Counted from the first letter of the stretch, positions 34,503 through 62,951 are shown. The stretch is DNA of 64,000 nt from Bacteroidota bacterium (GCA_026390935.1 JAPLEZ010000142.1:35196-99195); one strand, 5' to 3'. Notes: generated by a model not told the origin, from the sequence alone. Numbers and translations: made by a program.

Positions 34503-34567
34503 AACATTTTTTGGCCTTCGCCATTGATCTATTTATTGTATTTTAGAAACTTAATTTTATCACACAA

Positions 34568-37708: not shown

Positions 37709-37856
37709 AAAAATATTTGTTGTTAGTAGTGGCGCTAAAATAGGCATATTATTTAAAGCTGTCAATATCTTAAACAGTTTCATTGCACACTCACCAACTA
37801 TCTTTATATTAGCGCTATTCTTCCAAAAAGCAAACAACTGTGACCTGTAAATAGAG

Positions 37857-40463
37857 ATGGCAACCTTAGAAAAATTCCAGAACAACGTAGCGGTTAAATA
37901 CCAAATTTTTAACAGTTTATTTTTAACCCTTCCTTTTGAGGAAGTCACCAATATAGGTGTTACTCTGCCTTTGCTTTTTCAAGATTGTAAGGACGGTTTT
38001 GAGCACAATAGAACTCCTCAGGAAATTGTTGATCAGTTTTTCAAAAAAAGAACAAAAATAAAAAATGAAGAAGAAATCAATTTGTTGATTTTTAAGTTCA
38101 TTCAATACATCGAAAGACAAGTGGTGTTGTTTGACGCCATTGAAGATTCAGCATTTGAAAAGATCAACGATTTAGACGGTCAGGGCACTATTAAATATTT
38201 ATTCAGTCGTTCACAAAATGCCAACCGTATGGAGAAGTTGGTGCAAAAGCTGAAGGATTTTAAAGTGCGTCCGGTGTTGACCGCTCACCCTACACAGTTT
38301 TATCCAAGTCGAGTTTTATCAATTATCAACGACCTGGAAGTAGCCATTCGTAAAAACGATTTGCGCGACATCAACGATTTGCTTCGTCAGCTCGGAAGAA
38401 CTCCATTTGTAACCAAAGAAAAACCAACTCCGCTGGATGAAGCCATGCGTTTAATGTGGTACTTGGAATATGTTTTTTACCATTCCATTCCTAAAATTCA
38501 CAGCAGAATGCGCAAGCAAATGAAGTTGGCTGGGGTGGATGTGGATGATTTTGATAATAATTTAATTGACCTTGGTTTTTGGCCAGGTGGCGATAGAGAC
38601 GGAAATCATTTTGTTACTGCCGATATCACCAGAAAGGTGGCTTCTGAGTTGAAACAAAAAGTTTTCATTTGCTACTATAGAGATTTAAGAAATTTAAGAA
38701 AACGCTTGACCTTTAGTGGAATCGATGAGCGCATAGAAATTATTTACAATACGCTTTCCAACACCATTTTCAATACTGATGGAAAACGCTACCACACTAA
38801 GGAAGATTTACTGAAGGATTTAAATTACATCCGCGTGTTGATAGTGGAAAAACACAATGGTTTGTTTATTCATTTGTTGGATGAATTGATTTGGAAAGTG
38901 AAAATTTTTGGTTTCCATTTCGCTTTGTTGGATGTGCGCCAGGATTCCCGCATCCACGGAAAAGTGCTCAGCGATGTTTTTGAAGCGATGGCTTCTGGAA
39001 AATTAAAAGACTCGGTACGAGGTAAGATCCCAAAAAATTACGAAGAGCTTTCTGAAGCTAAAAAAATTGCAGCGTTGTTGACGTTGGAAGGAAATATTGA
39101 TCCTGATCTTTTTGAAGACGACATGACGAAAGAGACTTTGAAATCTCTTTACGTGATCAGAGACATTCAAAAAGCTAACGGTGAAATTGCATGTCACCGT
39201 TACATTATCAGCAACACGCAAACAGCGGTGAACATGTTTGAGGTGTACGCTTTGGCTCGCATTTGCGGATGGGAAAAAGAAATGACATTGGACATCGTTC
39301 CTTTGTTTGAAACCATTGATGATTTGGTCAACGCCAATGACATCATGGCTACCATGTATGGAAATGATGCTTATGAAGCACAATTGAAATTCCGTGGTAA
39401 AAAACAATACATCATGTTGGGCTTCTCCGATGGAACAAAAGATGGTGGCTATTTGATGGCCAACTGGTCTATTTTCCGTGCGAAAGAAAACCTGACGGAA
39501 ATTGCAAGAAAGAATAAAGTGAGTGTGGTGTTTTTCGACGGTCGCGGCGGACCACCAGCGCGAGGCGGAGGAAATACCAATAAATTTTACTCCAGTTTAG
39601 GAGATAGAATCGAAGACGATGAAATTCAATTGACCGTTCAAGGTCAAACCATTTCTTCCAACTTCGGAACAGTAGATTCTTCTCAGTACAACATAGAGCA
39701 GTTGATTTGTGCTGGCTTGGAAAACTTTGTTTTTAAAGGAGATATTTTAAAATTATCCGACAAAAATCGTGAGTTGATTGACGACATGGCGAAGGAGGCT
39801 TACGATGAATATTGCCGATTTAAAAACGATCCTAAATTCATTGATTACCTTGAAGAAGTGAGCGTTTTGCAATACTACGGTAAAACAAATATTGGTTCCC
39901 GTCCATCCAAAAGAAAAAAAGCAGATAAGCTTACATTGAGCGATTTACGTGCGATTCCTTTTGTAGGAGCGTGGACTCAGATGAAGCAAAATGTTCCTGG
40001 ATTTTTTGGTTTCGGTACTGCCATCAAGAAATACAAAGATGCTGGCAGAATCGACGAGATAAAAGATTTGTACCAAAAATCATTGTTCTTCAGAACGCTG
40101 GCAGAAAACTCAATGATGTCCTTGTCTAAAACCTATTTCCCGTTAACAGCTTATTTGGCCAACGACAAAAAATTTGGAAAATTTTGGAAATGGATTCACG
40201 ATGAATATACCATCACTAAAGCTCTTTTGCTGGAGATTTCAGGAATGGATTCTTTGCTGGAAAATCAACCTTCCAACCAGGCATCTATTCAAATGAGAGA
40301 GAATATTATTTTGCCATTGATCACTATTCAGCAATATGCTTTAATGAACTTAAAAGATATTGAAAAGGGCGAGAGAAAAGATGCGGAGATGGCTCCTGTG
40401 TTTGAAAAAATGATCATTCGTGCTTTCTTTGGAAGTATTAATGCGAGTAGGAATTCGGCTTAG
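37857..40463 (+). CDS. ppc: Phosphoenolpyruvate carboxylase
   Basis: VLTAHPTQFYPSRVL, FFDGRGGPPARGGG and GYLMANWS motifs. 868 aa. Confidence 0.9.
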   Translation: MATLEKFQNNVAVKYQIFNSLFLTLPFEEVTNIGVTLPLLFQDCKDGFEHNRTPQEIVDQFFKKRTKIKNEEEINLLIFKFIQYIERQVVLFDAIEDSAFEKINDLDGQGTIKYLFSRSQNANRMEKLVQKLKDFKVRPVLTAHPTQFYPSRVLSIINDLEVAIRKNDLRDINDLLRQLGRTPFVTKEKPTPLDEAMRLMWYLEYVFYHSIPKIHSRMRKQMKLAGVDVDDFDNNLIDLGFWPGGDRDGNHFVTADITRKVASELKQKVFICYYRDLRNLRKRLTFSGIDERIEIIYNTLSNTIFNTDGKRYHTKEDLLKDLNYIRVLIVEKHNGLFIHLLDELIWKVKIFGFHFALLDVRQDSRIHGKVLSDVFEAMASGKLKDSVRGKIPKNYEELSEAKKIAALLTLEGNIDPDLFEDDMTKETLKSLYVIRDIQKANGEIACHRYIISNTQTAVNMFEVYALARICGWEKEMTLDIVPLFETIDDLVNANDIMATMYGNDAYEAQLKFRGKKQYIMLGFSDGTKDGGYLMANWSIFRAKENLTEIARKNKVSVVFFDGRGGPPARGGGNTNKFYSSLGDRIEDDEIQLTVQGQTISSNFGTVDSSQYNIEQLICAGLENFVFKGDILKLSDKNRELIDDMAKEAYDEYCRFKNDPKFIDYLEEVSVLQYYGKTNIGSRPSKRKKADKLTLSDLRAIPFVGAWTQMKQNVPGFFGFGTAIKKYKDAGRIDEIKDLYQKSLFFRTLAENSMMSLSKTYFPLTAYLANDKKFGKFWKWIHDEYTITKALLLEISGMDSLLENQPSNQASIQMRENIILPLITIQQYALMNLKDIEKGERKDAEMAPVFEKMIIRAFFGSINASRNSA

Positions 40464-40488: not shown

Positions 40489-42294
40489 CTATTGTCCCTT
40501 TATTAATTTAAGCTCATCAGCCGAGAATCCGGCTGGATCGCCTTCGCCCGCATAATTTGCGGAAAAGGTTAATTTATAGAGATACTTAAGATCAATAGAA
40601 GCAGACCAAGATGTACACCCCGTGCCCGCTGCAACCTGATAGGTGCAAGATCCGAAACTAGTTGACGCTATTTTTACTTTGTCGTCAATGCTGTAATAAT
40701 CTAAATCAAATTGGCTTCTAAGACCTGGCGAATATTCTTGTGACCATCTAAGTGTGCCGGTTTGCATAAGATCTGGAACCCCGTCTAATATGCTTCTTGT
40801 AACGCATATAAATCGGTAATTTGGAAATGGTGCTGAGTAGAAATAGATATCTCCCGTTTGTCCTGCTTGTGGAGAACAGGTGCTGCCAGGGCTCCATTCT
40901 CCCAATTCATATTTACCAACATACCAAACTGGTTTTTGTGGCGGAATTAATTCCAATGTCGCACTTAAAGTGAGCTTTGATTCACCGAATTTCGATTTAT
41001 ACATGATATCAAAAGTAAATTCCTGGTTTACAATTTCTGTGGTAGTGAACTCTACGATAATACCGTCGGCACTGAAATCTAATTTTCCAGTGACTTTCGG
41101 ATTTGAAATGTTAGTCATGAAAAGCAGATGCGGATCTACAGCCAAGGTTTTTGATTTCGCCACTGCAACATTGTTGAGGTCATAAGCCGAGCCTTCTAGC
41201 ACGTAGCCGAATTTGGAGGTGAACTGGTTTATTTTGTCCCACATTTTTCCAATTTCATTTAAGGAAATGATCATGTCATTCATCAAAATTGAAGTGGAGT
41301 TGACGTCTTCTTTATCAGGATTTCTATACGGAGACTGTAATTTTATTTGGTAGGCTTTGTCTTTTTGAAAGGTATATACTGAGGCTGTTTTAAGCGAGGA
41401 GTTCAAGTCGGCAACCAAAATTTCACCAAAGCGCACCAGCGCTCTATCTAGTCCGTCAATATTACTTGCATTGAACTGGTACAGTTTAACCATCAGTCCA
41501 AGACCACAAGCTGCGCTTATCCACGGTGCTGATGGGGCTGCCACAATGCCTATAAGAACAAGACTCAGTAGTTTATTTTTATTTACACGAGCCCTTTCAA
41601 TGGTTTGTTCCAAAATGGCTTCAGGGCAATCTAGTGCTTCGTCGCCACTTGTTTTAAATGAATAGCCCTTGATGTTGTTTGCAATAGGATTTTGAACAGC
41701 AGAAAACAATTCGAGATTGGCAGCGATAAATGCAGCCAACTCCTTCTTTTGATCCGCTGACATATTCGCTATACTGTCGTTAACAGCTTTTGTATAGGCT
41801 TTTATAGTTGCAAGGTGTTGCGCGCTGAATTGTGATCCGTCGGCATCTTTTATATGGGAATAAATACTGTCTAGATTATTGTCGCTGAAAGTGAATTCGC
41901 TGAATGAATTATTTATGAAGGCAGTTGGATCAGCTATCAAAGTACCTGCACTTACATTGAATTCGGTTTTATATTCTATGTTGTTTACTATGATTTTAAA
42001 GTCATATTTGCCACTGGCCAGTTCAGGCACAATGAAAGCCAAAATTGCAGCACTTGAATCCACACCAACTTTTATGGTTTTTCCACCAATTGTTGCGTCG
42101 TAAATTTTAGCGTCAAAGGCTAGGTTGGTGACTTCAATAGTGGCGATTTCCATTACTGTAACATCTGATTTCTTTGCGGAAATGTACGATTGACCAGTGT
42201 TTGTATTAGTGTTGCTGTTGTTTGTGTTGGATTCCTTAGTGCAGGCTGCTGTTAGCACTATCAAAAGTATAAGAAGGGGAACTAAATTTTTCAT
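40489..42294 (-). CDS. Hypothetical lipoprotein (large, surface-exposed, beta-rich)
   Basis: Lipoprotein signal MKNLVPLLILLIVLTAAC followed by a low-complexity N/T linker. I chose the start at 42294, internal to the ORF-track start. Confidence 0.55.
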   Translation of the reverse strand: MKNLVPLLILLIVLTAACTKESNTNNSNTNTNTGQSYISAKKSDVTVMEIATIEVTNLAFDAKIYDATIGGKTIKVGVDSSAAILAFIVPELASGKYDFKIIVNNIEYKTEFNVSAGTLIADPTAFINNSFSEFTFSDNNLDSIYSHIKDADGSQFSAQHLATIKAYTKAVNDSIANMSADQKKELAAFIAANLELFSAVQNPIANNIKGYSFKTSGDEALDCPEAILEQTIERARVNKNKLLSLVLIGIVAAPSAPWISAACGLGLMVKLYQFNASNIDGLDRALVRFGEILVADLNSSLKTASVYTFQKDKAYQIKLQSPYRNPDKEDVNSTSILMNDMIISLNEIGKMWDKINQFTSKFGYVLEGSAYDLNNVAVAKSKTLAVDPHLLFMTNISNPKVTGKLDFSADGIIVEFTTTEIVNQEFTFDIMYKSKFGESKLTLSATLELIPPQKPVWYVGKYELGEWSPGSTCSPQAGQTGDIYFYSAPFPNYRFICVTRSILDGVPDLMQTGTLRWSQEYSPGLRSQFDLDYYSIDDKVKIASTSFGSCTYQVAAGTGCTSWSASIDLKYLYKLTFSANYAGEGDPAGFSADELKLIKGQ

Positions 42295-42422
42295 TAGATA
42301 CTGTTTGATTGTTTTATGAGCATGCAATATGGGTATTATATTGATGGGGAACTAATAAATTGTAAAACAAAAAAGCAATCCCTGTTGGAGATTGCTTCTT
42401 TCGTTTTACTGTATATGTTTTG

Positions 42423-44669
42423 TTATTTACTCAATAAAAATCCTTTACTCATTCCATCTACCAGCACCGTGAAATCTCCAGCTTCGGTAATCCATTCGTT
42501 TTTAGCGTTCACAAAAGCTAAGTCCTTAGGATGAATAACAAAAGTTACAATGGTGCTTTCTCCGGCTTTTAAATTCACTTTAGAGAAGCCTTTTAAACGT
42601 TTGTTAGATGGCGTAATTGACGCCACTTCATCTCTCACATACAATTGAACTACTTCTTTTCCTTCGCGGGTTCCGGTGTTGCTTACTTTAACGGAAACTT
42701 TTATGCTGTCGTTAAAACCAATGCTATTTTTATCGAGGATCAAATCGCTGTATTTAAAAGTAGTGTAGCTCAATCCTGATCCGAAGGTATACTGCGGATT
42801 GATGGCATTCATTCCAAATGAAGGATCTCTCATTTCCGATTTTTTGTAATCGTAAGTAGTGAATGATCCAGTGTATCTTGGGTAAGTGAATGGAAGTTTT
42901 CCGCTGGGATTTGCATCGCCAAAAAGAATTTCGGCAATTGCTCTTCCTCCTTCGTTGCCTGGATGATAAGCCATTACAACAGCATCCACCAATGGTTCAA
43001 TTTCTGAAATAAGACGTGGACGGTTTTCTGCTAAAACCAAAATTATTTTTTTACCCGTTTTTGCCAACTCCTTGATCAAATTGAGTTGATTTCTGTCCAT
43101 GGTTAAATCTTCAATATCACCAGGTTTTTCTGCACTTGGTTTTTCTGCTAAACAAACAATGATATAATCGGCGTTTTGAGCTTGTTTAACGGCCTCTGCT
43201 GTATTTACATCTTTGTCGTAAGTTGTTCCTTCAACATAAATTGTTTTGTCGGCTCCAATCTCATCTTGAATGGCTTGAAGAATAGTTTTTTTGTCTTTAG
43301 GATTGTGTTTGGTTTCAACACCTTGCCAAGTGTAGGTCCACGCGCCATTTAAAGGATTTAGTAAGTTTGCTCCGGCACCTGTTACTAATACTTTTTTGTC
43401 TTTCGCCAATGGCATAATGTTATTGGTGTTTTTCAAAAGAGTAACACTTTCTAACGCGGTTAAATAATTTTGATTGGCAAATTCTGGAGATGCAAATTTC
43501 GGATACATTTTAGCATCATAATATGGATGTTCAAATAGACCCAATTTTATTTTCACGCGAAGAATTCTTCTAACAGCATCATCAATTCTGCTCATTGGAA
43601 CTTTTCCTTCGTTAACGTTTTCAATTAAATATTTGCAGAAGTCTACATCTAGTGGAGTCATGCTCATGTCGATTCCAGCGTTGATCGATAGGGCAACAGC
43701 ATCTTTATAATTGGCAGCAACGTTGTGCACCGTGTATAGCATGATGATGTCTTCCCAGTCGGTGACAGCAAATCCCTGGAAATTTAATTCTTGTTTTAGT
43801 ATTTCAGTAACGATGTGGTAATCGGCATGAACAGGAGTACCATTGATTTCGCTAGAGTTTACCATCACCGTCATTGCTCCATTTTTAATGGCTTCGGCAA
43901 AAGGAACTAAATAGTATTCTCTTAATAAACGCTCAGGCATTAAAATCGGTGTTCTGTCTTTTCCGCTGGTGGAGTTGCTGTACCCAACGTAATGCTTCAA
44001 GCATGCTGCAACTTTTTCGGGATTAGAAAAATCATCCCCTTGGTAACCATGAATAATGGCTTTTCCCATTTGTGATGCTAAGTATGGATCTTCTCCGAAG
44101 GTTTCGAAAAAACGCGACCACAATGGTTGTCGTCCTAAATCCAATACAGGAGAAAAATTCCACGGAATTCCAGAAGCACGAACTTCGTAGGCCGAAATTG
44201 CACCAGCTTTTTCAATCAATGCAGGATTCCAGGTTGCAGCCATTGCTAATTCTTGCGGAAAAATGGTAGAACCTGCGGTGTAGGTAGCGCCATGAATAGC
44301 ATCAATACCATATAATACCGGAATTTTCATTCGGGTTTTTTCTGTCGCTACTTTTTGAATTTTAGAAATGATGTCGTGCCATCTTTCACGTGGAATGGCA
44401 TAAGTACCAGTATTTAAAATTGATCCAACATGATATTTCAATAAAATAGAATCCAGTTTTGCAGGATCAATTTCCATTGTTTTATTGTCATCAAATGCTT
44501 TTCCTTTAGCTACCACATCCAAAGTAACTTGTGTCATTTGTCCAACTTTTTCAGCCAGGGTCATTTGAGAAATCAGCTTATCAATTTTTGCTTCGGTAGT
44601 ATTTTGCTGAGCCGAAGATGTTATGTAAAAAAGACACAACAACGCTAGGGGTAAGGTTTTAATGTTCAC
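42423..44669 (-). CDS. Glycoside hydrolase family 3 beta-glucosidase
   Basis: GH3 N-terminal catalytic domain (GFAVTDWEDI region, KHYVGYS), a C-terminal domain and a fibronectin-like domain. Signal peptide. Confidence 0.85.
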   Translation of the reverse strand: MNIKTLPLALLCLFYITSSAQQNTTEAKIDKLISQMTLAEKVGQMTQVTLDVVAKGKAFDDNKTMEIDPAKLDSILLKYHVGSILNTGTYAIPRERWHDIISKIQKVATEKTRMKIPVLYGIDAIHGATYTAGSTIFPQELAMAATWNPALIEKAGAISAYEVRASGIPWNFSPVLDLGRQPLWSRFFETFGEDPYLASQMGKAIIHGYQGDDFSNPEKVAACLKHYVGYSNSTSGKDRTPILMPERLLREYYLVPFAEAIKNGAMTVMVNSSEINGTPVHADYHIVTEILKQELNFQGFAVTDWEDIIMLYTVHNVAANYKDAVALSINAGIDMSMTPLDVDFCKYLIENVNEGKVPMSRIDDAVRRILRVKIKLGLFEHPYYDAKMYPKFASPEFANQNYLTALESVTLLKNTNNIMPLAKDKKVLVTGAGANLLNPLNGAWTYTWQGVETKHNPKDKKTILQAIQDEIGADKTIYVEGTTYDKDVNTAEAVKQAQNADYIIVCLAEKPSAEKPGDIEDLTMDRNQLNLIKELAKTGKKIILVLAENRPRLISEIEPLVDAVVMAYHPGNEGGRAIAEILFGDANPSGKLPFTYPRYTGSFTTYDYKKSEMRDPSFGMNAINPQYTFGSGLSYTTFKYSDLILDKNSIGFNDSIKVSVKVSNTGTREGKEVVQLYVRDEVASITPSNKRLKGFSKVNLKAGESTIVTFVIHPKDLAFVNAKNEWITEAGDFTVLVDGMSKGFLLSK

Positions 44670-44699
44670 GGTTTAAATTTTTCGCAATTTATAAATTAA

Positions 44700-45686
44700 T
44701 TATGGTTGATAAGGATGATTGATCGTAAATATTGGATGATCGAAAGCAACTGATACTGCATTGGTATAAGGCGCCACTTGATCAGAAAGCAAAACAAAAG
44801 AGACTTTATCCAACTTATCTGGTTTACCAGGTGTTGACACATTGTCTAATAGCTCAGCATAGGTGTAGCTCAATAATTTCCATCCTGTCCAATCTGGACG
44901 TATATTGATATGTCGAGCTACGCCGCCTTCTTCCCAAAAATTTACTAAAAACCAAGTGTCCGACGGACCATTTCCATAAACCATTATATTGAAATATACT
45001 TTGTTGGAATCGGTCGATAAACCGTAGGTTGAACCATGATTCACATCTGCTTTATTGGAAGCAATATCCATGTAATTTACATAAGGTTCGATAGGTAACT
45101 TGGGATCAAAATTTTGGTGTTTCCATGGCGTTCCCGACATGTAAAAATATTTACCGCCGTCGGCTTTTGGATGAGAATTATCGAATACAGTTACTGCAGG
45201 CCAGTCGCGAGGCCAATCGGTAGCGCTTTTCAATGCAGAGAAATCAGTGATGAGAATGCCATTTTTATCAGGATTTCTCAAGCCTGTTATTGGCATCGTT
45301 GTTTTGAAAGTGTCGGTGGTATGTTTAAAGGTGAGAAAAATGGTCACAGTTTCTTTTTGGAAAGATGGAACGTCATCAGCGGTACCATTCCAAAGTGCAT
45401 TTGATTTATCTACCACTTTTGAAATGGTAGTAAATGTTTTTGTAGCGCCGCTGGTATTCCCTTTTACGGTAATTACCCAGTCGGTTTCTTTTTCAAAGGA
45501 CGCCGTAAAATAAACCGTTTCATCTTTTGAAAAATCTACAGCGGACATACTTTTATTGAGTGGATCAACAACCGTTACCGGACCGTAAATCCCAACAATG
45601 GAAGGGCCTAGCGTGTCTTTTCTGCAGCCGAACTGCAGAGTAAGAACAGCGGTAAAGGCAATTAATATAAATGATAAGTTCTTCAT
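44700..45686 (-). CDS. Hypothetical lipoprotein, candidate glycan-binding surface protein
   Basis: Lipoprotein signal MKNLSFILIAFTAVLTLQFGC. Sits between the GH3 gene and the outer-membrane barrel genes. Confidence 0.5.
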   Translation of the reverse strand: MKNLSFILIAFTAVLTLQFGCRKDTLGPSIVGIYGPVTVVDPLNKSMSAVDFSKDETVYFTASFEKETDWVITVKGNTSGATKTFTTISKVVDKSNALWNGTADDVPSFQKETVTIFLTFKHTTDTFKTTMPITGLRNPDKNGILITDFSALKSATDWPRDWPAVTVFDNSHPKADGGKYFYMSGTPWKHQNFDPKLPIEPYVNYMDIASNKADVNHGSTYGLSTDSNKVYFNIMVYGNGPSDTWFLVNFWEEGGVARHINIRPDWTGWKLLSYTYAELLDNVSTPGKPDKLDKVSFVLLSDQVAPYTNAVSVAFDHPIFTINHPYQP

Positions 45687-45697
45687 AATTTCTTCAA

Positions 45698-47401
45698 TTA
45701 AAAGTTCATGTTGAACATTACTAAAATTTGACTCAGCGAATAGTTGTTCGCGCTAGTTGCTTTGTCTTGATAAGAGAACAAATGATCCTGAACAGTCAAA
45801 TATGATTTTTCGCTGAAGCGGTATTTCACTCCGAAAGCGATAACTGTTTGAGCTACGTCCATGTTAGTGGTAGTGAAATTAACGATCAAATCATTGTAAG
45901 TATTTCTAACCGAAATAAATTCATTTCCTTTTGAGGTCAACATTTTATAACCTCCCAAAACACTCATCTTTTTAAATACTTCCACTTCTAAACCTAGGTC
46001 AGCTAAATTATTTACCAAACTAACTTTTTCAAGTACATCCCCGCCACGATTGGTGGATTCAAAGCTGTATCCGGCAGTTAAAATTAAGCGTTTGTTCCAG
46101 TTCAAAAATTTATGAATGTTGAAATCAACAGCTCCTTTTACAAGCATAAAGCTTCTTAATTGGCTAGATCCTACACCTGCAATTTCCGATAAATATGCAG
46201 CGTCAACATCGGCTACAATTTTTTGTAATGAATCTTTGTACTGTGCATTCAATTGAAATCCTGTTCTGTTTGGCGTTGCTTTTCCGTAAGGCTGTGCATT
46301 TCCATACATTGGATTGTATGCCATCAAACTTCTTGAAATTACTTTGTTGTAAATATTGGCATCTCTTACTAAGTCGAAAATGGTGATACCACGCGTTAAC
46401 GTGTTGTTGTATTTTTGAAAATCGGTAACAGTACCACCATAATTTACACGTTTGCTTTGTGCTGCTGAACTGTAAAATTCGGGCGCAACGTAAGAGTAGT
46501 TGGTGGTTAAAATTAAGTGTTGGTTTTTCAATTGCAATTGTAAACCTGCATCGTAAAAATATCCTTTGGAGTTGCCCGATTTAAATGCTGTGTGTGCATT
46601 TTCAGAATATCCTCCTTCACCAATTAATGACAATTGAGTATTTGCTCCATTAACAATTTTATAATTGATTTCTCCTGTTGCAACCGGATTGTAAAGAAGC
46701 ACTGTATCGCTTTTTACGTTGGCAGCTACATCAAATAAATTTACATAGTTGGCAGCAATTTTCAGTCGTGAACTTTGAGTGATGGTAATTTTTCCTCCGG
46801 CATGAAAAGCAGATGGGAAAGTAGCGTAGCTTGCTCTGTTTCTTAAAAAGAATCCATCTACTCTAATAGTGTCTATAGGAGCTTGATCAAAGGCCAAAGC
46901 AAAGTTTGTTGCTGCACCTTGCTGCCACCAAGAGTTTCCTCTGTTGCTAAGGTTTTCGTAGTTGGTGTAGTCTCTGCGCATATCACTAAAAATTAGCGCT
47001 TCATTTACAGAACCCTCTGAACTATTATTGAAAAAAGTATATGGAGTTAACTTCATGTACAAGTCACCCACCTGATAGTTGAAGATTTTGGCAACTGTTC
47101 CTTTTACCGACAATTGTCGCAAAGTTGCAGAAGCGCCTGCAGTGTAAAATCCACTGAAGTCGTTGTTGAAACGAACAATGGCTTGTATCTCCGTTTTTTT
47201 ATCGGGATTGATGTTAATGCCCAAATCCATCAACACATTCCCTTTGCTGGTGTGGTTGGCGTTGGTGGTGTCGGCATTGTTCATTGTATTTACTTTCTGC
47301 AATGCCCGAGCGTATGCACCAAATTTGATTTTGTCATCTTGTGCATTCATTAGTTGAACACTGATGAAGAACAAACAAAGTAAGATTGCTTTTTTATTCA
47401 T
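45698..47401 (-). CDS. Uncharacterised outer-membrane beta-barrel protein (about 567 aa)
   Basis: Signal peptide MNKKAILLCLFFISVQLMNAQ. C-terminal aromatic residue (...LVMFNMNF) typical of OMPs. Alternating beta-strand pattern. No TonB plug. Confidence 0.6.
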   Translation of the reverse strand: MNKKAILLCLFFISVQLMNAQDDKIKFGAYARALQKVNTMNNADTTNANHTSKGNVLMDLGININPDKKTEIQAIVRFNNDFSGFYTAGASATLRQLSVKGTVAKIFNYQVGDLYMKLTPYTFFNNSSEGSVNEALIFSDMRRDYTNYENLSNRGNSWWQQGAATNFALAFDQAPIDTIRVDGFFLRNRASYATFPSAFHAGGKITITQSSRLKIAANYVNLFDVAANVKSDTVLLYNPVATGEINYKIVNGANTQLSLIGEGGYSENAHTAFKSGNSKGYFYDAGLQLQLKNQHLILTTNYSYVAPEFYSSAAQSKRVNYGGTVTDFQKYNNTLTRGITIFDLVRDANIYNKVISRSLMAYNPMYGNAQPYGKATPNRTGFQLNAQYKDSLQKIVADVDAAYLSEIAGVGSSQLRSFMLVKGAVDFNIHKFLNWNKRLILTAGYSFESTNRGGDVLEKVSLVNNLADLGLEVEVFKKMSVLGGYKMLTSKGNEFISVRNTYNDLIVNFTTTNMDVAQTVIAFGVKYRFSEKSYLTVQDHLFSYQDKATSANNYSLSQILVMFNMNF

Positions 47402-47440
47402 GGTAGATGTATATAAGTTTTTCATTTGTTTCTGTTTTCT

Positions 47441-49399
47441 TTAGAACATTACTTTCAATTCAAGTGTGCCTTCATTTCCTGAGAATTTCTCAGTGGCGAA
47501 ATTTTTGTCTTCAAAGGAGAACCATCGTTGACGGATGTATAAGGTGGTTGAGCTCGTTAGCGAAAAATCGAAACCTACGCCAATCGCTTTTCCAACCTGA
47601 TCTCTCGCATTTCCGTTAGTTCCTAAATCAGTGCTTTGATTTCCTTTGATCATTTCTATACCTCCGTAGAGTGTAAGAATGAAATTTTTGTGCAATTGGT
47701 AGTACACGTCCATTTCATGGTATTGTGCACGAATGTATGCGCTATTATCAAATTTGGTGAAGGCCGAAAATTGTTTTTGCACCGAGCTGAATGTTCCAAG
47801 GTAGTTCACATATAAATCGCGATCCAACACATTCATTTTGTATTTCACTTGGAAATCGAAAGCGTTGTAAAATCTTTTGAATTGGGCATTTCCGTTGGCA
47901 AGTGTATCTGTAAGATTAACTTGCTCATAAGCACCACGGTAGTAAGTTCCAACTCTGTTGTTTGGACCGAACATGCCGGGAATAGGGAAGTAGCCAGGCA
48001 ATCTCGACCACAATAGACTATTCACTCTGTGACCATAGTTTAACACTTTGCCGTTGGCAATCAGTTCTTTTTCAGCTGAAATTTGTGTGCCTGTTGACAC
48101 CATGAATTTCCATACTTTAAAGTTGGTGTTTACTGCGCCACCCATTCTGTTGTTGGCTATGTCGCCAACATTGTCGAGAGAAGGACCAAAGGGCTGCAAT
48201 GAGGTCGTGCCTGTATTTCCTTGGTAACCCGTGTACACTTCTTTAATGGTTGTGTTGTTGAAATTGGCAACGTTGCTGGTGAAGCTTTTGCCAATAGTGT
48301 AATAGCGAAAATCCAAAGGAATGAACGTGTATTTTTTAGGAATGGATAAATCTAAAATCACACCTTCACTCCAGTTTTCTTTGTAAGACGGACTCACATA
48401 TCTTCCGGCACCAACTTCCCCTTTTAAGGATATGCCTTTTATTTTAAATGAGAATTCGGACGTGATAATGTTCCATTGAACATCATTTTTCGATTTAATA
48501 CTATCCGATCTATTGAAATTATTGAAAGTGTTTAAGCTTACGTAATTGTTGTCTTTCAAATTTTTCTTCAATCGGATCCCTAAATTTTGAGAAGGCTTTA
48601 CTTCATTTTCTCTGTTGATTCCACCGTTGGCTCCCGTTTTTCCGTAAAATATATCAACGTTGGTGTTGATTTTAGTGATCAAGCCTGTTGCCATAAAACC
48701 TTTGAACGCTTGTGTTCCAAACCTGTTATCTTGAGTGATCGCACCGCTATAGTAGTAGGAAGCATAACGTGTTTTTACGTTGCCTGCTGGATCCCACGGT
48801 CGTCTTTCAAAAATGCTGAAGCGATTGAATCCTACGTTGGCTCCAAAAGTAAATGGAGTTAATTTCGTCCATTCAATACCACCTGCAATTAAAAAGAAAT
48901 TACCAATCGGGGTGTTTATGTTTCCTCTCAATACAGCAGAGAAGAAAGGACTTACGGTAGGTGCCGCGCCAATACCCGGACCTTTATACACCTGAAAAGG
49001 ATTTCCTATCATCACCTCGGTACCAAAGCTTGTGGTGGCTGTGGGCTGACCACCAACATATAAAAACATGGTAGGATCAAAATAACCATCACCCACGCTC
49101 ATGCTTCGTTTAGGTCCGTCGCCGTATGCTTGATTCATATCTCGGTTGTAGAAAAAACCTCTGTAGTAACCGCCGGTTTGAATACCACTGAGGAATTCTT
49201 TGAACAAGCTTTTTTCTACCGGTGAACTAATTCCATCCGATGAATTTTCTCTTACCAGAGATTTTCTAACCAATGACCAGGGTGTGAAGGCAGCCTTCAT
49301 GGAATCTGATTCTGTTTGTTGCGCGTACGTGGCGTTAAAGCCTGCGCAGCACGCAAACAAGAGGGTTAGAATTCTTTTATTATTTTTTTTAATATGCAT
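47441..49399 (-). CDS. Uncharacterised outer-membrane beta-barrel protein (652 aa)
   Basis: Signal peptide MHIKKNNKRILTLLFACCAGFNATYAQQ. C-terminal ...TLELKVMF. Gly/aromatic-rich strands. No TonB box. Confidence 0.6.
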   Translation of the reverse strand: MHIKKNNKRILTLLFACCAGFNATYAQQTESDSMKAAFTPWSLVRKSLVRENSSDGISSPVEKSLFKEFLSGIQTGGYYRGFFYNRDMNQAYGDGPKRSMSVGDGYFDPTMFLYVGGQPTATTSFGTEVMIGNPFQVYKGPGIGAAPTVSPFFSAVLRGNINTPIGNFFLIAGGIEWTKLTPFTFGANVGFNRFSIFERRPWDPAGNVKTRYASYYYSGAITQDNRFGTQAFKGFMATGLITKINTNVDIFYGKTGANGGINRENEVKPSQNLGIRLKKNLKDNNYVSLNTFNNFNRSDSIKSKNDVQWNIITSEFSFKIKGISLKGEVGAGRYVSPSYKENWSEGVILDLSIPKKYTFIPLDFRYYTIGKSFTSNVANFNNTTIKEVYTGYQGNTGTTSLQPFGPSLDNVGDIANNRMGGAVNTNFKVWKFMVSTGTQISAEKELIANGKVLNYGHRVNSLLWSRLPGYFPIPGMFGPNNRVGTYYRGAYEQVNLTDTLANGNAQFKRFYNAFDFQVKYKMNVLDRDLYVNYLGTFSSVQKQFSAFTKFDNSAYIRAQYHEMDVYYQLHKNFILTLYGGIEMIKGNQSTDLGTNGNARDQVGKAIGVGFDFSLTSSTTLYIRQRWFSFEDKNFATEKFSGNEGTLELKVMF

Positions 49400-49424
49400 T
49401 ATTTCGTTGAGTTATAATGAGTAT

Positions 49425-50324
49425 TTATGGTTTCTTATATACACGTACGTAGTCTACAAACATATACTTTGGAAAAGTAGTGCTTTCGTCGGGCGGACCA
49501 GGCCATTGACCGCCAATGGCGAGGTTGAGAATCATGTGAAAAGTTTGGTCGAATGGCCATCTGTGTGGATCGGTATCTGTAGTTTTTTTTGTGGAGTACA
49601 GCACGCCATCTAAATACCATCTAATTTCTTTCGGTTCCCATTCCACTGAGTACACATGAAAGGCGGTAGATAAATCACCTTCAGCAACATCAGTATGTTC
49701 TCCTTTGTAAGAATTGTTTGGCCAAGGCTGTCCGAAGTGAATGGTTCCGTAGCAAGTTTTTGGTTGGTGACCGATGGATTCCATGATGTCAATTTCACCA
49801 CTTTGTGGCCAAGTGCCATAAACATAGTCGGTAGGCAACATCCATATTGCTGGCCATACCCCTTGCTGTACCGGAGTTTTGGCGCGGATGTCGAAACGAC
49901 CATAAGTCCAGCCATGCTTGTATCTTGTGTTCAATCTACCAGAAGTATAAAATTTCCCTTTGTAGTTTTGTTTGATGGCTTTAAGTACCAAGTATTTTTT
50001 ATCGATGATGTAAGAGTTGGCTTTTGAAGCGGTGTAGTATTGTAATTCATTATTTCCTCCTCCATCACCATTTACTTCGTGCGTCCATTTTGTGCTGTCA
50101 ATTTCAGTTCCTGCAAATTCATCGGACCAAACCAATTCCCATCCATCTTTTTTAATTGGCTCTTTAAAACCATTGTCGGGAGTGGAAGTGAGGTCAACGG
50201 CAATATTTTCCGAAGCTGATTCGTACAAATCGGGTTGCTCCACCATGCTCACATGGGAGCAGCTATACATTGCAAACAAAGCGATGCAGAGCGAGGAGTA
50301 AAGTCGAAAGTTTTTATTGATCAT
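49425..50324 (-). CDS. Glycoside hydrolase family 16 beta-glucanase (laminarinase-like)
   Basis: GH16 catalytic motif GEIDIME (E-x-D-x-x-E). Signal peptide. Confidence 0.85.
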   Translation of the reverse strand: MINKNFRLYSSLCIALFAMYSCSHVSMVEQPDLYESASENIAVDLTSTPDNGFKEPIKKDGWELVWSDEFAGTEIDSTKWTHEVNGDGGGNNELQYYTASKANSYIIDKKYLVLKAIKQNYKGKFYTSGRLNTRYKHGWTYGRFDIRAKTPVQQGVWPAIWMLPTDYVYGTWPQSGEIDIMESIGHQPKTCYGTIHFGQPWPNNSYKGEHTDVAEGDLSTAFHVYSVEWEPKEIRWYLDGVLYSTKKTTDTDPHRWPFDQTFHMILNLAIGGQWPGPPDESTTFPKYMFVDYVRVYKKP

Positions 50325-50334
50325 GTGTTTTAGC

Positions 50335-50922
50335 TTATTTTTTAAGTTTCTTTACGAAGCGAATCTCATCTAGATACAATGTTCCTGTTGGAAGCACCAT
50401 ATATAAGAGCGTATTTACGCGGGCAAGGTCGGCTCCTTTAATGTTGATGGAGTACTTTTTCCATTCGCTGCCGATCTCTAAAAATGTGTCATTTACTTTG
50501 TCAACTTCAGGCGCACCGCCGCCACCAACGCCTATTTCGGGCAAGATGTATGGTCCGCTTTCAGTCTCTTCTGCACGGGCATAAAACTCTAATTTATCGT
50601 AAGGGGTGAGGTCGGGTAATTTTTGATCTTCTTTTAAAGAAATATTCCATGAGCCTGTAAATTGAATGTGCAAACCTCGCCATGCTTCCGAATTATCGGT
50701 TGTGATTTTCATGCAGTTTTCCCCTTTATAAGGTTTGTCTTTGCAGTTGATGTCGATTTTCATGCTCTTCCCATCTTTCTCTCCCATGAAGCCTGTAGGT
50801 ATACCATGTTTGAAATAGTCGGAATAGATTAAGTAGGATTCCACTTCATCTTGTAAAGAAGGAGTAAATGCCAAAAGTGCAACCAAAAAAGCAAGTGAGA
50901 GTATTAGCTTATAACTTTTCAT
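50335..50922 (-). CDS. Hypothetical secreted protein, possible carbohydrate-binding module
   Basis: Signal peptide MKSYKLILSLAFLVALLAF. Beta-sandwich-like composition. Genomic context with GH16. Confidence 0.45.
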   Translation of the reverse strand: MKSYKLILSLAFLVALLAFTPSLQDEVESYLIYSDYFKHGIPTGFMGEKDGKSMKIDINCKDKPYKGENCMKITTDNSEAWRGLHIQFTGSWNISLKEDQKLPDLTPYDKLEFYARAEETESGPYILPEIGVGGGGAPEVDKVNDTFLEIGSEWKKYSINIKGADLARVNTLLYMVLPTGTLYLDEIRFVKKLKK

Positions 50923-51016: not shown

Positions 51017-51046
51017 TGTAAATAGCTGATAATTAAGCTATTTACA
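51017..51046. promoter_or_regulatory. Palindromic candidate operator TGTAAATAGCT-N8-AGCTATTTACA
   Basis: Perfect 11-bp arms with an 8-nt spacer. Shares the TAGCT-N8-AGCTA core with the palindrome at the hipB promoter. Confidence 0.4.
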
Positions 51047-51227: not shown

Positions 51228-52454
51228 TTACATACATCTATCAATTGCCCTTTGTATCATGTTTTTTGAATCCCTGCTCACTCCGCACTCACTTGCATAT
51301 TTTTTCCAGTTGTTCACCACCTCTTGCACCTGCTCAATAATATTTGCAGAGTTTTTTACTCTAAAATAATTTGCCAGCTCCAATAAGTGCTTTTTTGTGG
51401 GATTTGCACTTTCTCCGCCTACCATAGTGCTATGCATGCCATATCCCGAACTTGAAAAAGTTAAATCATAGGCAGGTGCCACTTTCCATTTCCCCGTAGC
51501 GTCCATTAAGAAAGAAAAGTTTTTACTGTGATCATCTCTGTTGTGGGTGAAGATATTAAATGCTGCCAATCGCAATATTTTTTCATAGGCATTTATATCC
51601 TTTTCCAGTCGGAAAGCACAATCCATCAGATTTCCATAATCCAATGAACTTGATCTAAAATTATCGTGCATTATTCCTGCTGCCGAATGCATATGTAGGC
51701 GCGTATTTCCGTTTCTGTCAAAGCGTTTGGTGCCAAAATATACTTTTTGTGATTTGCCTTTAAAGAGTTTGCACTCGCTCATTTCAATGCCTGCATCGGA
51801 AGCCATTCGATAATAAGCATATTCTATGTTTGCAACGTCAGTTAGATCTAAGGAAGATGGAAATTTGATCAGCCAGTGCTGATAATCTTTGGGCAACATT
51901 TTTTCATCTGCAATTAAATGCTGTGTAACAGGATTGTATCCCACTACAATTTTTGGTCGGGCTCCACCTGAAGAGCCACCAAGAATAACTAGCTCATCTA
52001 AAACATCAATCGCAGTGCCCGAAATAATTTGTTGGCTAGCCTTAGCAATTTCATCCAATTCAAGCTTGAAATTGTTGTCGATTTCTTCCCCTTTAGCTGG
52101 TTGGTAAATCAAGGCCCCCATGCCGTTAGCGCCCACATAAGCCAGACGGTCGAGTGCGCCAACATCATCAAGCGCTATGCCTTTGGCACTTAAAGATCTA
52201 TCGAGCAACAATCTTCCCCAGCCATCAGGCAATGAATCTGCAAACACACCAAATAATCCATCGAAAGGAAGGGCGTCGGCTTTATTTATCTCCCTGTTTA
52301 ATTTTAATTTGATGGGGGATATTTCGAGCCCTGTTTTTATAAAATCACTGTAGTATTTGAAATAAATATTTTTTGCTTCCGCCACCAATTCACCCACTTC
52401 AATTTCTTCTTTATTGAACTGAATCGAAACAATTATTTTCTTGATACGCCCCAT
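51228..52454 (-). CDS. hipA: HipA-family serine/threonine kinase toxin
   Basis: HipA N-terminal coupling domain and a C-terminal kinase core with HSKNFSFLMD (HxKNxS catalytic loop). Start overlaps the hipB stop (TAATG). Confidence 0.8.
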   Translation of the reverse strand: MGRIKKIIVSIQFNKEEIEVGELVAEAKNIYFKYYSDFIKTGLEISPIKLKLNREINKADALPFDGLFGVFADSLPDGWGRLLLDRSLSAKGIALDDVGALDRLAYVGANGMGALIYQPAKGEEIDNNFKLELDEIAKASQQIISGTAIDVLDELVILGGSSGGARPKIVVGYNPVTQHLIADEKMLPKDYQHWLIKFPSSLDLTDVANIEYAYYRMASDAGIEMSECKLFKGKSQKVYFGTKRFDRNGNTRLHMHSAAGIMHDNFRSSSLDYGNLMDCAFRLEKDINAYEKILRLAAFNIFTHNRDDHSKNFSFLMDATGKWKVAPAYDLTFSSSGYGMHSTMVGGESANPTKKHLLELANYFRVKNSANIIEQVQEVVNNWKKYASECGVSRDSKNMIQRAIDRCM

Positions 52455-52783
52455 TATTTTCTAGTTTTATCTCCAAATAATTTTTCTATCGCCTTAAGAT
52501 TTTCTGTTGATTTTAATATTAATTCAAAGTCGTTTATCCGGTTTAAGACGTGTGCTAATTTTAATAGTGATTCCAACGAAATCTGCCCGCTTAACTCAAA
52601 GCGTTTAATGCTTCCCAGCGAAACGCCTGATCGTTTGGCCAGTTCCATTTGTGTAAAACCCATTTGCTTTCTTAAAACTTTATGTTTTTGAGCAAGTTCT
52701 TCTAAAAAATCATGAGGATATTTCTCTATTCCAAATTTTGCCATGATGGATAATATATTATCTAAATGTAGATGTTTGTTCAC
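52454..52783 (-). CDS. hipB: XRE-family HTH antitoxin (HipB-like)
   Basis: HTH MGFTQMELAKRSGVSLGSIKRFE. Lies immediately upstream of hipA and is translationally coupled to it. Confidence 0.75.
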   Translation of the reverse strand: MNKHLHLDNILSIMAKFGIEKYPHDFLEELAQKHKVLRKQMGFTQMELAKRSGVSLGSIKRFELSGQISLESLLKLAHVLNRINDFELILKSTENLKAIEKLFGDKTRK

Positions 52784-52787
52784 TAAA

Positions 52788-52805
52788 TAGCTAATATATT
52801 AGCTA
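52788..52805. promoter_or_regulatory. Perfect 18-bp palindrome TAGCTAATATATTAGCTA 5 nt upstream of the hipB start, a candidate HipB operator
   Basis: Read directly. The half-site spacing (N8) mirrors the E. coli HipB operator architecture. Confidence 0.5.
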
Positions 52806-52970
52806 AAATGATTCGAGTCTAGCCTGAATTTAGAATGCTTTCAGCGTATTAGGTAACCTTATTTTAAGTCCCTGTTTTACCACTTACTTGGACCATATGC
52901 ACCACCTAAATCCCAACTTAATCTTAACGCACATTATATCATAACGCCTTCACCTACAAAAGGAATTAGA

Positions 52971-53615
52971 TTAATTCAATTTTATTTTTGACCTTTTTTG
53001 TTTACCAAAATCCTCTATGTATTTTGCTCTATCAAACTCTTTAATATATTCAATATTCCAATTTATAAAGGATTCTTTTGAAAGCTTTTTACTATATTCT
53101 TCATTCAAAAGAATAGCAGATTCCTTCCCTTTTAATAAGGCTGTTGTAATTATTTTAGTATACATAGCACTTTCATTGGATGGATTCTGATTAAGCAAAA
53201 AATCTGCTACTTCATTTGCTTTTTTAAAGTAATAATTTGCAGTATCATTCTTTCGCAATTTTGCATAAAACACTCCCTTATCAAGTAATAACACATCATT
53301 TTCTGGATTTACAGATATCATATGATTTATTAGTGTAATCGCCTTGGTCCAATCTTCTTTTTGAATTAATGCATTTAACTTATTATGATAAGGCAATGCA
53401 TAATTGGGATCACATTGAATGGCTTTATCTAAGAGGTAAATAGCTGAATCTAGATAAAAGGTAGAATCCTCTTCCATATATTTTTGTAGGAACCGAGTTC
53501 CTTCATTGTTATATAAGATGCATTCTTTATCTGTATTGCTTTTACAAGAAATGGATAATCCATAACAAACAATACTGAGTAAAATCCATTTGAAAATATT
53601 ACTGTTTTCTTTCAT
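52971..53615 (-). CDS. Tetratricopeptide-repeat protein (secreted/lipoprotein)
   Basis: Signal peptide plus Cys (LSISCKSN). TPR-like helical repeats (YALPYHNKLNALIQKEDWTKAITLINHMISVNPEN...). Confidence 0.6.
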   Translation of the reverse strand: MKENSNIFKWILLSIVCYGLSISCKSNTDKECILYNNEGTRFLQKYMEEDSTFYLDSAIYLLDKAIQCDPNYALPYHNKLNALIQKEDWTKAITLINHMISVNPENDVLLLDKGVFYAKLRKNDTANYYFKKANEVADFLLNQNPSNESAMYTKIITTALLKGKESAILLNEEYSKKLSKESFINWNIEYIKEFDRAKYIEDFGKQKRSKIKLN

Positions 53616-54202: not shown

Positions 54203-55078
54203 TTAGTTCAAAAACAATCTTTGAGTAGTTGTTCCTGCTGCAGTTTGCACTGTGATGTAGTAGATACCAGCATTTTTACCATTCAAATCAATGTTTACGT
54301 TTGATTGTGTTGATTGAGTTGAATAAATGGTTTGTCCTAAAACGTTTGAAACCGATACAGTAATCAAATCTGAATTTGCATTGTTTAAAGAAACGTTAAC
54401 TAAACCAGTTGAAGGGTTTGGGTAAACTGCCAACTTATTTTCGGTGATTAGATTAATTCCATTTGATTTTTCGCCAACTGTAAGTTTGGCAACTTTAAGA
54501 GTTCCGCTCAACGCAACAGTGAAGTCGGCTGCATCAGGCAGACCTTTGTGGTATGGCCATTCACTTGCATATCCAGCATTAACCCAAAAACGAATTTTTT
54601 TGATTTTAGTGGAATCAACATTTCCCTGCGCAGTACCGTTAGCTCCACCGTAATTATCTTTAAACTGACCTTGGAAATTGCAGCTATGTGCAGTGAACCC
54701 TGCGTCTTTAACTACCTTGAAGATGTTTTGTTGACCGCCTGCTAATTGGTTATCAGCTTGCTTATTGTTTTCATCAACCAACACAAATTGTAAAGCTACT
54801 GTTTGATCAGTGCTTGCATTAATGGTAACTATAGGTTTAACCCCTGCAGCAGAAAAATCAATGGAAGTAGGGAAAGTGATTTCAAAGTTGTCGTAATGAT
54901 CGTATCCAGCAGAAGTGATCGCCCAGTTGTTGCCGTCACTTGTGCTAGTGAAGTTAACATAATTGTTCCCAGTCAAAGTTGGAGCAGTGGTAAATTCATC
55001 AGAGTAAGAGTAAGTTTGCGCATTCGCTGTTATTCCCAAAAACAACAGACTAACAATAGAGAGTAAATTTCTTTTCAT
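54203..55078 (-). CDS. Hypothetical secreted protein with T9SS type-A C-terminal sorting domain
   Basis: Signal peptide MKRNLLSIVSLLFLGITANAQ. C-terminal ...GIYYITVQTAAGTTTQRLFLN. Confidence 0.7.
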   Translation of the reverse strand: MKRNLLSIVSLLFLGITANAQTYSYSDEFTTAPTLTGNNYVNFTSTSDGNNWAITSAGYDHYDNFEITFPTSIDFSAAGVKPIVTINASTDQTVALQFVLVDENNKQADNQLAGGQQNIFKVVKDAGFTAHSCNFQGQFKDNYGGANGTAQGNVDSTKIKKIRFWVNAGYASEWPYHKGLPDAADFTVALSGTLKVAKLTVGEKSNGINLITENKLAVYPNPSTGLVNVSLNNANSDLITVSVSNVLGQTIYSTQSTQSNVNIDLNGKNAGIYYITVQTAAGTTTQRLFLN

Positions 55079-62647: not shown

Positions 62648-62951
62648 CGTTGCAGGATTACGTTTAGAAAAAAAATTAGTTTGCATAGAAAGATCAGTAA
62701 TAAGCATAACTCCAATTTAAAGTAAATCAAAGCAGAAACAAAGTAAAACCATCAAAAGTTACAGCGTAATAAATTGATTTACAGATAGTTAAATTGATGG
62801 TAATTCACGCTTACAAGGCAAAATCGTTATTTGCTAAAAATGTGATAATGAGGCTATTGATTATTTTGGTAACAAGAAGGTTTTACACTTAGTGCGCAAT
62901 TGCAAAAGTGAAGCGTAATTTTATTTTACTAAAAAAGGAGGGAGATTTTTT

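Follow-up and report, generated by a model that had tools for sequence, protein, structure and literature searches.

How does a member of the Bacteroidota bring the products of β-glucan digestion across its outer membrane when the genes beside its glucanases encode neither SusC nor SusD? The question is raised by an operon at positions 42423-50922 of a 64,000-nucleotide stretch of DNA (GCA_026390935.1, JAPLEZ010000142.1:35196-99195; the whole stretch is called the window below), in which two predicted outer-membrane β-barrels, here A and B, are encoded among glycoside hydrolases, lipoproteins and a secreted protein. Polysaccharide utilisation loci (PULs) are conventionally recognised by the SusC/SusD gene pair (PMC12016534), so loci built on another import module fall outside that definition. 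The answer we favour, while holding it with real reserve, is that this is a SusC/SusD-independent β-1,3-glucan utilisation operon in which A, B and a lipoprotein make up the uptake module. As far as sequence homology can place it, the locus is a β-1,3-glucan variant of the atypical chu_1276-chu_1280 PUL of Cytophaga hutchinsonii and not a new kind of system.

A β-1,3-glucan operon without SusC or SusD

Six open reading frames (ORFs) lie head to tail on the minus strand, separated by intergenic gaps of 10-30 nt. From the first gene of the operon to the last they are:

50335-50922, minus strand: 195-aa secreted protein, putatively like a carbohydrate-binding module (CBM), with a type-I signal peptide; first gene of the operon
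49425-50324, minus strand: GH16 endo-β-1,3-glucanase (laminarinase), a lipoprotein of 299 aa with a Pfam GH16 match and the lipobox AMYSC
47441-49399, minus strand: barrel A, 652 aa, homologue of the gene at the CHU_1276 position; predicted plug-less outer-membrane β-barrel
45698-47425, minus strand: barrel B, 575 aa, CHU_1277 homologue; predicted plug-less 22-stranded outer-membrane β-barrel
44700-45686, minus strand: 328-aa lipoprotein with the lipobox LQFGC, homologue of the gene at the CHU_1278 position
42423-44669, minus strand: GH3 exo-β-glucosidase, 748 aa, with Pfam GH3 domains and a type-I signal peptide

A further glucanase gene lies 6.4 kb from the operon:

57305-62707, minus strand: GH81 endo-β-1,3-glucanase, 1800 aa, with N- and C-terminal Pfam Glyco_hydro_81 domains and CHU_C

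An initial annotation of this DNA had described a co-oriented set of GH3, GH16, lipoprotein and CBM-like genes, and the ORFs and coordinates are as it described; it gave the right length for A (652 aa), whereas B, put at about 567 aa, measures 575 aa. The substrate is read from the enzymes. The GH16 protein matches the Pfam GH16 model at E 2e-24, and its closest solved structures are laminarinases and β-1,3-glucanases (3iln, E 5e-64; 2hyk, E 5e-60). The N-terminal, C-terminal and Fn3-like Pfam domains of GH3 are all matched, its closest solved structure is the periplasmic β-glucosidase BoGH3B (5jp0, E 9e-201) and, given its type-I signal peptide, it presumably resides in the periplasm. GH81, which the initial annotation had placed 7 kb away, carries a type IX secretion system (T9SS) signal in its CHU_C tail and is likely to be the extracellular enzyme of first attack. 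We take β-1,3-glucan as the substrate from the nearness of GH16 to laminarinases, that of GH3 to BoGH3B and the presence of GH81 nearby. To call this a complete β-1,3-glucan degradation set, as the initial annotation did, is too strong: the window has the endo-acting GH81 and GH16 and the exo-acting GH3, but it yielded no inner-membrane sugar transporter, a point to which we return below.

No SusC, SusD, plug or other TonB-dependent receptor was found among the window ORFs of at least 400 aa, which comprise glutamate synthase subunits, T9SS cargo, an ATP-grasp enzyme, phosphoenolpyruvate (PEP) carboxylase, HipA, a 7TMR-DISM sensor and the cluster genes. None of the cluster proteins matches the Pfam SusD/RagB models. 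The absence of the pair, on which the initial annotation had been built, therefore holds for these ORFs.

Homology to chu_1276-chu_1280

The C. hutchinsonii genes chu_1276-chu_1280 encode the outer membrane proteins CHU_1276 and CHU_1277, the SGBP-B-like proteins CHU_1278 and CHU_1279 (SGBP, surface glycan-binding protein) and the GH9 endoglucanase CHU_1280; they are co-oriented, are needed for cellulose use and were called an atypical PUL without SusC/SusD by their authors; in the accessible literature the system is described in three cellulolytic species only (PMC12016534). CHU_1276 and CHU_1277 are required for the use of cellulose, cello-oligosaccharides and glucose (PMC12016534, PMC5553014), and the cells also need CHU_1276 to take up glucose when its concentration is low (PMC12016534, citing Ji et al. 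2014 AEM and Zhou et al. 2016 AEM; PMC5553014).

Barrel B aligns with CHU_1277, whose sequence we took from Table S2 of PMC5553014, at 37% identity over 546 aa (BLASTP, E 3e-102), and CHU_1277 matches a 146-sequence alignment of the B family at E 1e-123 (hhalign). For CHU_1276 and CHU_1278 homology was tested by proxy, through a metagenome contig (L033) whose B gene is 79% identical to CHU_1277. In this contig and a second one (L032), with B genes 79-81% identical to CHU_1277, the series starts with an A-family gene (747-773 aa), which is followed by B, by a lipoprotein (377-382 aa) that belongs to the family of the 328-aa lipoprotein, by a 374-aa protein near the size of CHU_1279 (375 aa) and by a 606-aa GH9; L033 thereby has its genes in the order of chu_1276-1280. 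Window barrel A is 28% identical to the 747-aa product encoded upstream of B in L033 (E 2e-61), the 328-aa lipoprotein matches the product encoded downstream of B (BLASTP, E 4e-11), and the lipoprotein family hidden Markov model (HMM) matches all of the Cytophaga-like contigs at E 1e-90 to 1e-99. Since B is a CHU_1277 homologue and A and the lipoprotein match the genes that flank its near-orthologue in L033, the window holds a homologue of the chu_1276-1278 core. The barrels can therefore no longer be called uncharacterised, as they had been at first: B is the homologue of a genetically studied protein, and A is the homologue at the chu_1276 position.

A conserved triad with changing partners

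We compared 57 related loci, of which 30 come from genomes in GTDB, 22 from metagenomes scanned with CHU_1277 and 5 from exact-protein look-ups; where one has to be singled out it is given by its handle, such as L031. Gene order is conserved over these loci, so the cluster is not a product of chance. A member of the lipoprotein family lies directly downstream of B in all of the 47 evaluable loci, and A lies directly upstream of B in 45 of them. Both misses are artefacts of the ORF caller: the upstream gene in L031 is a member of the A family (hhalign, E 6e-99), and the A position in L056 is taken by a 694-aa protein without a Pfam match in the database gene call, a putative A. The two barrel genes are always adjacent, and an overlap of the A stop codon with the B start codon in several loci (L008, L012, L013, L026, L027, L028 and L030) suggests that they are translationally coupled. 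The lipobox cysteine (LQFGC) of the 328-aa lipoprotein is invariant in the family alignment; the protein has no Pfam match, and a profile search of PDB sequences with it gave noise only. This lipoprotein is an obligate third member of the core, which the initial annotation missed, as it did the paralogy of A and B described below.

Around the triad the neighbours change. First, in L001-L024 and L029 the order is that of the window (195-aa protein, GH16, A, B, lipoprotein), with GH3 next in about half; GH3 is present 3' of the triad in many related loci. Second, L026-L030 have a GH2_C-like TIM barrel, A, B, the lipoprotein, a CBM30/CBM9 lipoprotein and GH3, to which L026 adds GH30 and a sugar transporter of the major facilitator superfamily (MFS). 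Third, L031 and L054-L056 carry LacI, a T9SS protein, A, B, the lipoprotein, a CBM30/SGBP_B_XBD lipoprotein, a TIM-barrel glycoside hydrolase and GH16, some of them also with GH3 and an MFS transporter. GH9 genes are neighbours in L032-L038 and L052, a GH5 gene in L057 and GH18 chitinase-family genes in L050 and L053, while SSF symporters are found in L025 and L042. In both GH18 loci (L050, 1217-8537; L053, 6381-13701) the GH18 gene comes right before A, B and two tandem copies of the lipoprotein, an arrangement that suggests a chitin-directed version of the module. An import module would be expected to keep its outer-membrane core constant while the hydrolases, CBM proteins, regulators and inner-membrane sugar transporters around it change, as they do here and as in the logic of SusCD. 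The association of barrel homologues with glycoside hydrolases, which the initial annotation had proposed to check, is consistent across related loci; its view of the barrels as specific to β-1,3-glucan is not borne out, as the same module stands beside GH9, GH5 and GH18 genes elsewhere.

Two kinds of recurring protein without a Pfam match accompany some of these loci. One, of 692-701 aa, lies just upstream of A (L040, 5331-7409; L042, 3839-5944; L049, 5310-7406), and the other, of 1170-1212 aa, lies downstream on the opposite strand (L031, 16758-20396; L055, 15517-19041; L056, 15904-19416); they may be unrecognised enzymes or further components.

The B family is large. An exhaustive profile search returned 770 clusters at 50% identity with E<=1e-3, 289 of them with E<=1e-30. 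Word-indexed searching gave 105 clusters at 90% identity and badly underestimated the size and spread of the family, and a third such protein search, with the 146-sequence alignment, added no members. We considered whether the profile counts are inflated by the A family and rejected this, because at library scale A goes undetected by the B profile. The 30 GTDB hits are without exception metagenome-assembled genomes (MAGs) of Flavobacteriales, Cytophagales and Chitinophagales; one cultured carrier seen is Rubricoccus marinus (BSZ36_11525). The A-based GTDB scan used narrow motifs such as [FW]ER[RK]PWDP and missed A-family members such as that of L031 (FERTPWEG), so the 30 GTDB species are a minimum, and nothing follows from C. 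hutchinsonii not being among them. One locus (L006, CAZNHL010000027.1) is labelled 'uncultured Bifidobacteriaceae bacterium' and has the full cluster of Bacteroidota type, with a barrel A 64% identical to that of the window; its label is probably a binning or taxonomy error.

Predicted structure of the barrels

Both barrels have 'AQ'-type signal peptides with no lipobox cysteine at the cleavage site and end in phenylalanine (...LKVMF and ...NMNF), and together with the predicted folds these features support a location in the outer membrane. Neither matches any Pfam or NCBIfam model, even at E<=1; in particular, there is no match at that threshold to Plug (PF07715), TonB_dep_Rec (PF00593), OprB (PF04966), LamB/ScrY (PF02264), porin or SusD models, and a direct search of PDB sequences gave none. 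AlphaFold2, run with the family alignments, predicts a β-barrel for each, with a predicted local distance difference test (pLDDT) score of 74.8 and a predicted template modelling (pTM) score of 0.73 for A, and 87.9 and 0.84 for B. No N-terminal globular domain is present in either model. Thus the barrel folds, the ordinary signal peptides, the terminal phenylalanines and the lack of a plug that had been read from the sequence alone all agree with the Pfam searches and the models, and a TonB plug, which would have told against a distinct family, was found in neither barrel by either route.

Strand counting on the models, which the initial annotation had proposed, gave 22 for B and 22-24 for A. 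In the B model the even-numbered, periplasmic turns are very short and the odd-numbered, extracellular loops longer, the long ones being L3 (125-165) and L7 (314-386). Strand 1 of B begins about 4 residues past the predicted signal-peptide cleavage site, which leaves no room for a plug or a TonB box. In A the barrel is preceded by a disordered N-terminal extension (residues 27-73, a 45-residue tail), where conservation is at its lowest for this protein (0.40, as compared with 0.61-0.82 in the rest).

Foldseek searches of the PDB with A and B return generic barrels only, including porins, AlgE, ushers and the barrels of TonB-dependent transporters (TBDTs), with TM-scores of at most 0.43 when normalised to the query and at most 0.47 when normalised to the target, and do not discriminate among these classes. 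The families of A and B do align with each other (hhalign probability 93%, E 2.9e-7, 444 columns), and by this comparison of profiles the two are remote paralogues.

Conservation in both barrels peaks in the long extracellular loops and not in the strands. The loop of A at 173-231 (GFNRFSIFERRPWDPAGNVKTRYASYYYSG...RFGTQAFKG) reaches 0.82 against 0.61-0.68 in the strand regions; in B the segments that stand out are PYGKATPNRTG, which belongs to L7, and YQVGD..LTPYTFFN, with which L3 begins. Ordinary porins show the reverse pattern, with strands more conserved than extracellular loops. The conservation of these aromatic-rich loops suggests that they serve as a binding site, as a constriction or as an interface.

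In the public annotation, barrel A (NT150_12650, 619 aa) begins 33 codons into the ORF and would thereby lose its signal peptide. Since homologues of 651-655 aa span all of the 652 aa, this start is probably an error.

A proposed uptake mechanism and its alternatives

The steps by which such an operon might work can be set out as follows. GH81, secreted through the T9SS, and the GH16 lipoprotein would cut laminarin-type glucan outside the cell, and the CBM-like secreted protein and the 328-aa lipoprotein would hold substrate or products at the surface. Oligosaccharides would then cross the outer membrane through A and B, the paralogous barrels of about 22 strands that have no plug, which probably form a stoichiometric complex with the lipoprotein, and GH3 in the periplasm would trim them to glucose. 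Passage would most likely be TonB-independent and substrate-selective, with selectivity coming from the long, conserved, aromatic-rich loops (L3 of A; L3 and L7 of B) that would occupy or gate the lumen in place of a plug. Channel function, complex formation, loop gating and TonB independence are what we infer, the channel role in particular from the plug-less folds, the conserved aromatic loops, the genomic logic and the C. hutchinsonii phenotypes.

Several points weigh against this account. The channel role is a deduction for the whole family and not for this locus alone, and the loss of cell-associated β-glucosidase activity by the C. hutchinsonii mutants (PMC5553014) fits scaffolding or presentation as well as it fits a channel. 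The most conserved loop of A, on which gating would partly depend, is modelled at pLDDT 40-58, so that its placement is uncertain, and the number of strands in A, as read from the DSSP string, lies between 22 and 24, 22 being the probable figure by homology to B. A is linked to CHU_1276 by way of a contig in which B and CHU_1277 share 79% identity, and the close relatives all come from MAGs. Finally, no inner-membrane sugar transporter was identified in the window, a survey that left out ORFs of 131-336 aa at 33530-36282.

If A and B were not channels, they might form an outer-membrane scaffold or assembly platform that anchors, stabilises or exposes lipoproteins and enzymes, while sugars enter through other porins. 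We consider this unlikely, if worth serious attention. A scaffold would account for the lipoprotein as obligate partner, and for the lower cell-associated β-glucosidase activity of cells that lack CHU_1276 or CHU_1277 (PMC5553014). CHU_1279 has likewise been proposed to act by its physical presence in a complex and not by binding cellulose (PMC12016534), and the low confidence of the conserved loop of A is what would be expected of an interface that needs its partner. However, two barrels of about 22 strands are a costly anchor, the defect of the chu_1276 mutant on low glucose points to permeation (PMC12016534), and the module is exchanged among loci with different glycoside hydrolase families, as SusCD is. 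The roles of scaffold and channel are also not mutually exclusive.

The reading of A and B as an uptake channel would take another form if one or both were highly divergent, SusC-like TBDTs and the lipoprotein a non-homologous functional SusD. The 22 strands of B equal those of TBDT barrels, the best query-normalised TM-scores are to such barrels (0.41-0.43 for A, 0.39-0.40 for B), the structural hits of a CHU_1276 model were TBDTs (PMC12016534), and the lipoprotein adjoins the barrels as SusD does. These TM-scores are no better than those to ushers or AlgE, though, and the searches with Plug and TonB_dep_Rec at E<=1, the mature N terminus of B and the disordered, poorly conserved tail of A give no place to a plug, which makes a TBDT improbable. 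That the barrels are polysaccharide exporters (of the AlgE, PgaA or Wza type) or bystander general porins is very hard to credit: AlgE and ushers do appear among the generic Foldseek hits, but no glycosyltransferase or synthase genes lie alongside, the module stands among hydrolases, CBM proteins, regulators of the LacI or 7TMR-DISM kind and sugar importers (MFS, SSF), synteny in 47/47 loci excludes chance placement, and the C. hutchinsonii mutants show catabolic phenotypes.

A bolder extension of the uptake reading, which we offer tentatively and would not yet call probable, is that Bacteroidota and Rhodothermota possess in the triad a second general route for importing glycans, one that needs neither TonB nor SusCD: two different 22-stranded barrels paired in a hetero-oligomer, gated by L3/L7 and the lipoprotein, with the substrate set by exchangeable glycoside hydrolase and CBM neighbours. 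If this is true, the triad is widespread in environmental lineages, with β-1,3-glucan, cellulose, chitin and other β-glycans as substrates, although neither Pfam nor NCBIfam contains it and PUL definitions built on the SusC/SusD pair miss it. Independently of this extension, the many freshwater and soil Flavobacteriales, Cytophagales and Chitinophagales with loci outside that definition may have their capacity for glycan degradation underestimated, and the long-standing question of how C. hutchinsonii takes up cellulose products without SusCD is recast as an instance of a general import system. Cytophaga is not mentioned in a 2026 review of bacterial glycoside transporters. What appears to be new relative to the accessible literature is the three-gene core with its paralogous barrels, the large family without a Pfam or NCBIfam model, and the combination of the core with at least six glycoside hydrolase families across several orders (GH16/GH3/GH30, GH9, GH5 and GH18). 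A further gain is that soluble substrates such as laminari-oligosaccharides become available, with which transport and structural studies are far easier than with crystalline cellulose.

Accessory genes and other features of the window

The 195-aa protein that heads the operon has no Pfam or NCBIfam match, and a PDB sequence profile search with its family gave noise only. It is encoded directly upstream of GH16 in 25 loci, and in Cytophagales loci it forms the C-terminal half of proteins of about 370 aa. By hhalign it weakly matches both the CHU_1279-like N-terminal CBM-like domain (77%, E 2e-5) and the Pfam-CBM30 region of the lipoproteins of L026-L031 (70%, E 4e-5), and a terminal strand motif, G-T-L-Y-L-D-E-I-R, is common to all three; the CHU_1279-like and CBM30-lipoprotein alignments showed no detectable relation to each other (hhalign probability 5%). 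It is plausible from these matches that the protein is a CBM-like β-sandwich, and it is a candidate glycan-binding protein.

A candidate regulator and a further lipoprotein gene lie on either side of the operon:

55380-57233, minus strand: 7TMR-DISM membrane sensor, candidate regulator, with a DISMED2 extracellular domain, a 7TM region and a C-terminal Zn-ribbon by Pfam
40489-42327, minus strand: 612-aa lipoprotein with weak Ig/TIG-like hits only, possibly a strain-specific surface protein

At least 13 related loci have a homologue of the sensor (identity 26-88%) no more than a few kb from the cluster, for example L001 (4037-5899), L003 (3483-5357), L011 (4167-6047) and L019 (5158-7194). Going by this recurrence, the sensor may regulate PULs of the GH16-A-B type. 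The 612-aa lipoprotein is encoded 3' of GH3 on the same strand after a 95-nt gap; we rejected it as part of the conserved system, since 0/30 compared related loci hold a homologue. It is doubtful that this protein belongs with the others, and it may be a strain-specific surface protein.

A perfect 11-bp inverted repeat, TGTAAATAGCT-N8-AGCTATTTACA (51017-51046), is found about 95 nt upstream of where the operon's first gene starts. In several related loci the equivalent gene has a stem-loop of different sequence 40-70 nt upstream, and a search of related loci for conservation of the palindrome sequence found none. The repeat could be an operator, a hairpin in the 5' untranslated region or the terminator of the upstream gene. 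Scanning for sigma-70 promoters and terminators is uninformative for Bacteroidota.

Between the sensor and the operon (51228-53615) are genes for a HipA-like kinase (408 aa), a helix-turn-helix partner (109 aa) and a tetratricopeptide repeat (TPR) lipoprotein. The stop and start codons of the kinase and its partner overlap, and the GC content of the region drops to 0.336. Homologues of all three are missing from the 30 related loci compared, so the group looks like a genome-specific toxin-antitoxin insertion. The 868-aa ORF at 37857-40463 was assigned as PEP carboxylase by sequence motif, outside the Pfam scan, and L003 has a copy of it, 91% identical, next to the cluster. T9SS C-terminal domains are found on six window ORFs, among them a 2139-aa protein and a LamG-domain protein:

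8039-14458, 31551-33413, 36335-37951, 54203-55078, 57305-62707 and 62991-63713: ORFs with T9SS tails (Por_Secre_tail or CHU_C)

The organism clearly relies on the T9SS for surface and secreted proteins.

Comparison with known systems

LamB, ScrY, ChiP and OprB, the sugar porins of Proteobacteria, resemble A and B in being plug-less barrels encoded in sugar catabolic operons, and they appear among the generic Foldseek hits of both. The passage proposed here is also of their kind, passive and substrate-selective diffusion through constrictions formed by loops. In contrast to the sugar porins, with their 16-18 strands, the window barrels have about 22; the two groups share no relation in sequence or Pfam, their TM-scores stay at or below 0.47, and two paralogues with a lipoprotein take the place of a homotrimer.

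The resemblance to canonical SusC/SusD PULs lies in the plan of the locus. Bacteroides PULs for β-1,3-glucan carry GH16, GH3, GH158 and SGBPs (PMC7974029). The window likewise combines a surface endo-glucanase lipoprotein, glycan-binding proteins, import across the outer membrane and a periplasmic GH3, the last of these nearest to BoGH3B, and in both kinds of locus a transporter core is combined with varying glycoside hydrolase families. The difference is in the core itself: the window is without a TonB-dependent transporter, a plug or a SusD TPR lipoprotein, and its import core would consist of two paralogous plug-less barrels and an unrelated lipoprotein.

The closest counterpart is chu_1276-chu_1280. 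The window differs from it in its enzymes, GH16 and GH3 with GH81 nearby for β-1,3-glucan as against GH9 for cellulose, and in having a single-domain CBM-like protein at the head of the operon and no two-domain gene of the CHU_1279 type after the lipoprotein. Its barrel A, at 652 aa, is about 100 aa shorter than A of the Cytophaga type (747-773 aa); its candidate regulator is a 7TMR-DISM protein, whereas a sigma factor of the extracytoplasmic function (ECF) type is reported in C. hutchinsonii; and its host is an uncultured Flavobacteriales-like MAG. What the two have in common is the lack of SusC/SusD and a run of co-oriented, tightly spaced genes in the same order, barrel A, barrel B and the lipoprotein, along with putative CBM-type proteins and a glycoside hydrolase.

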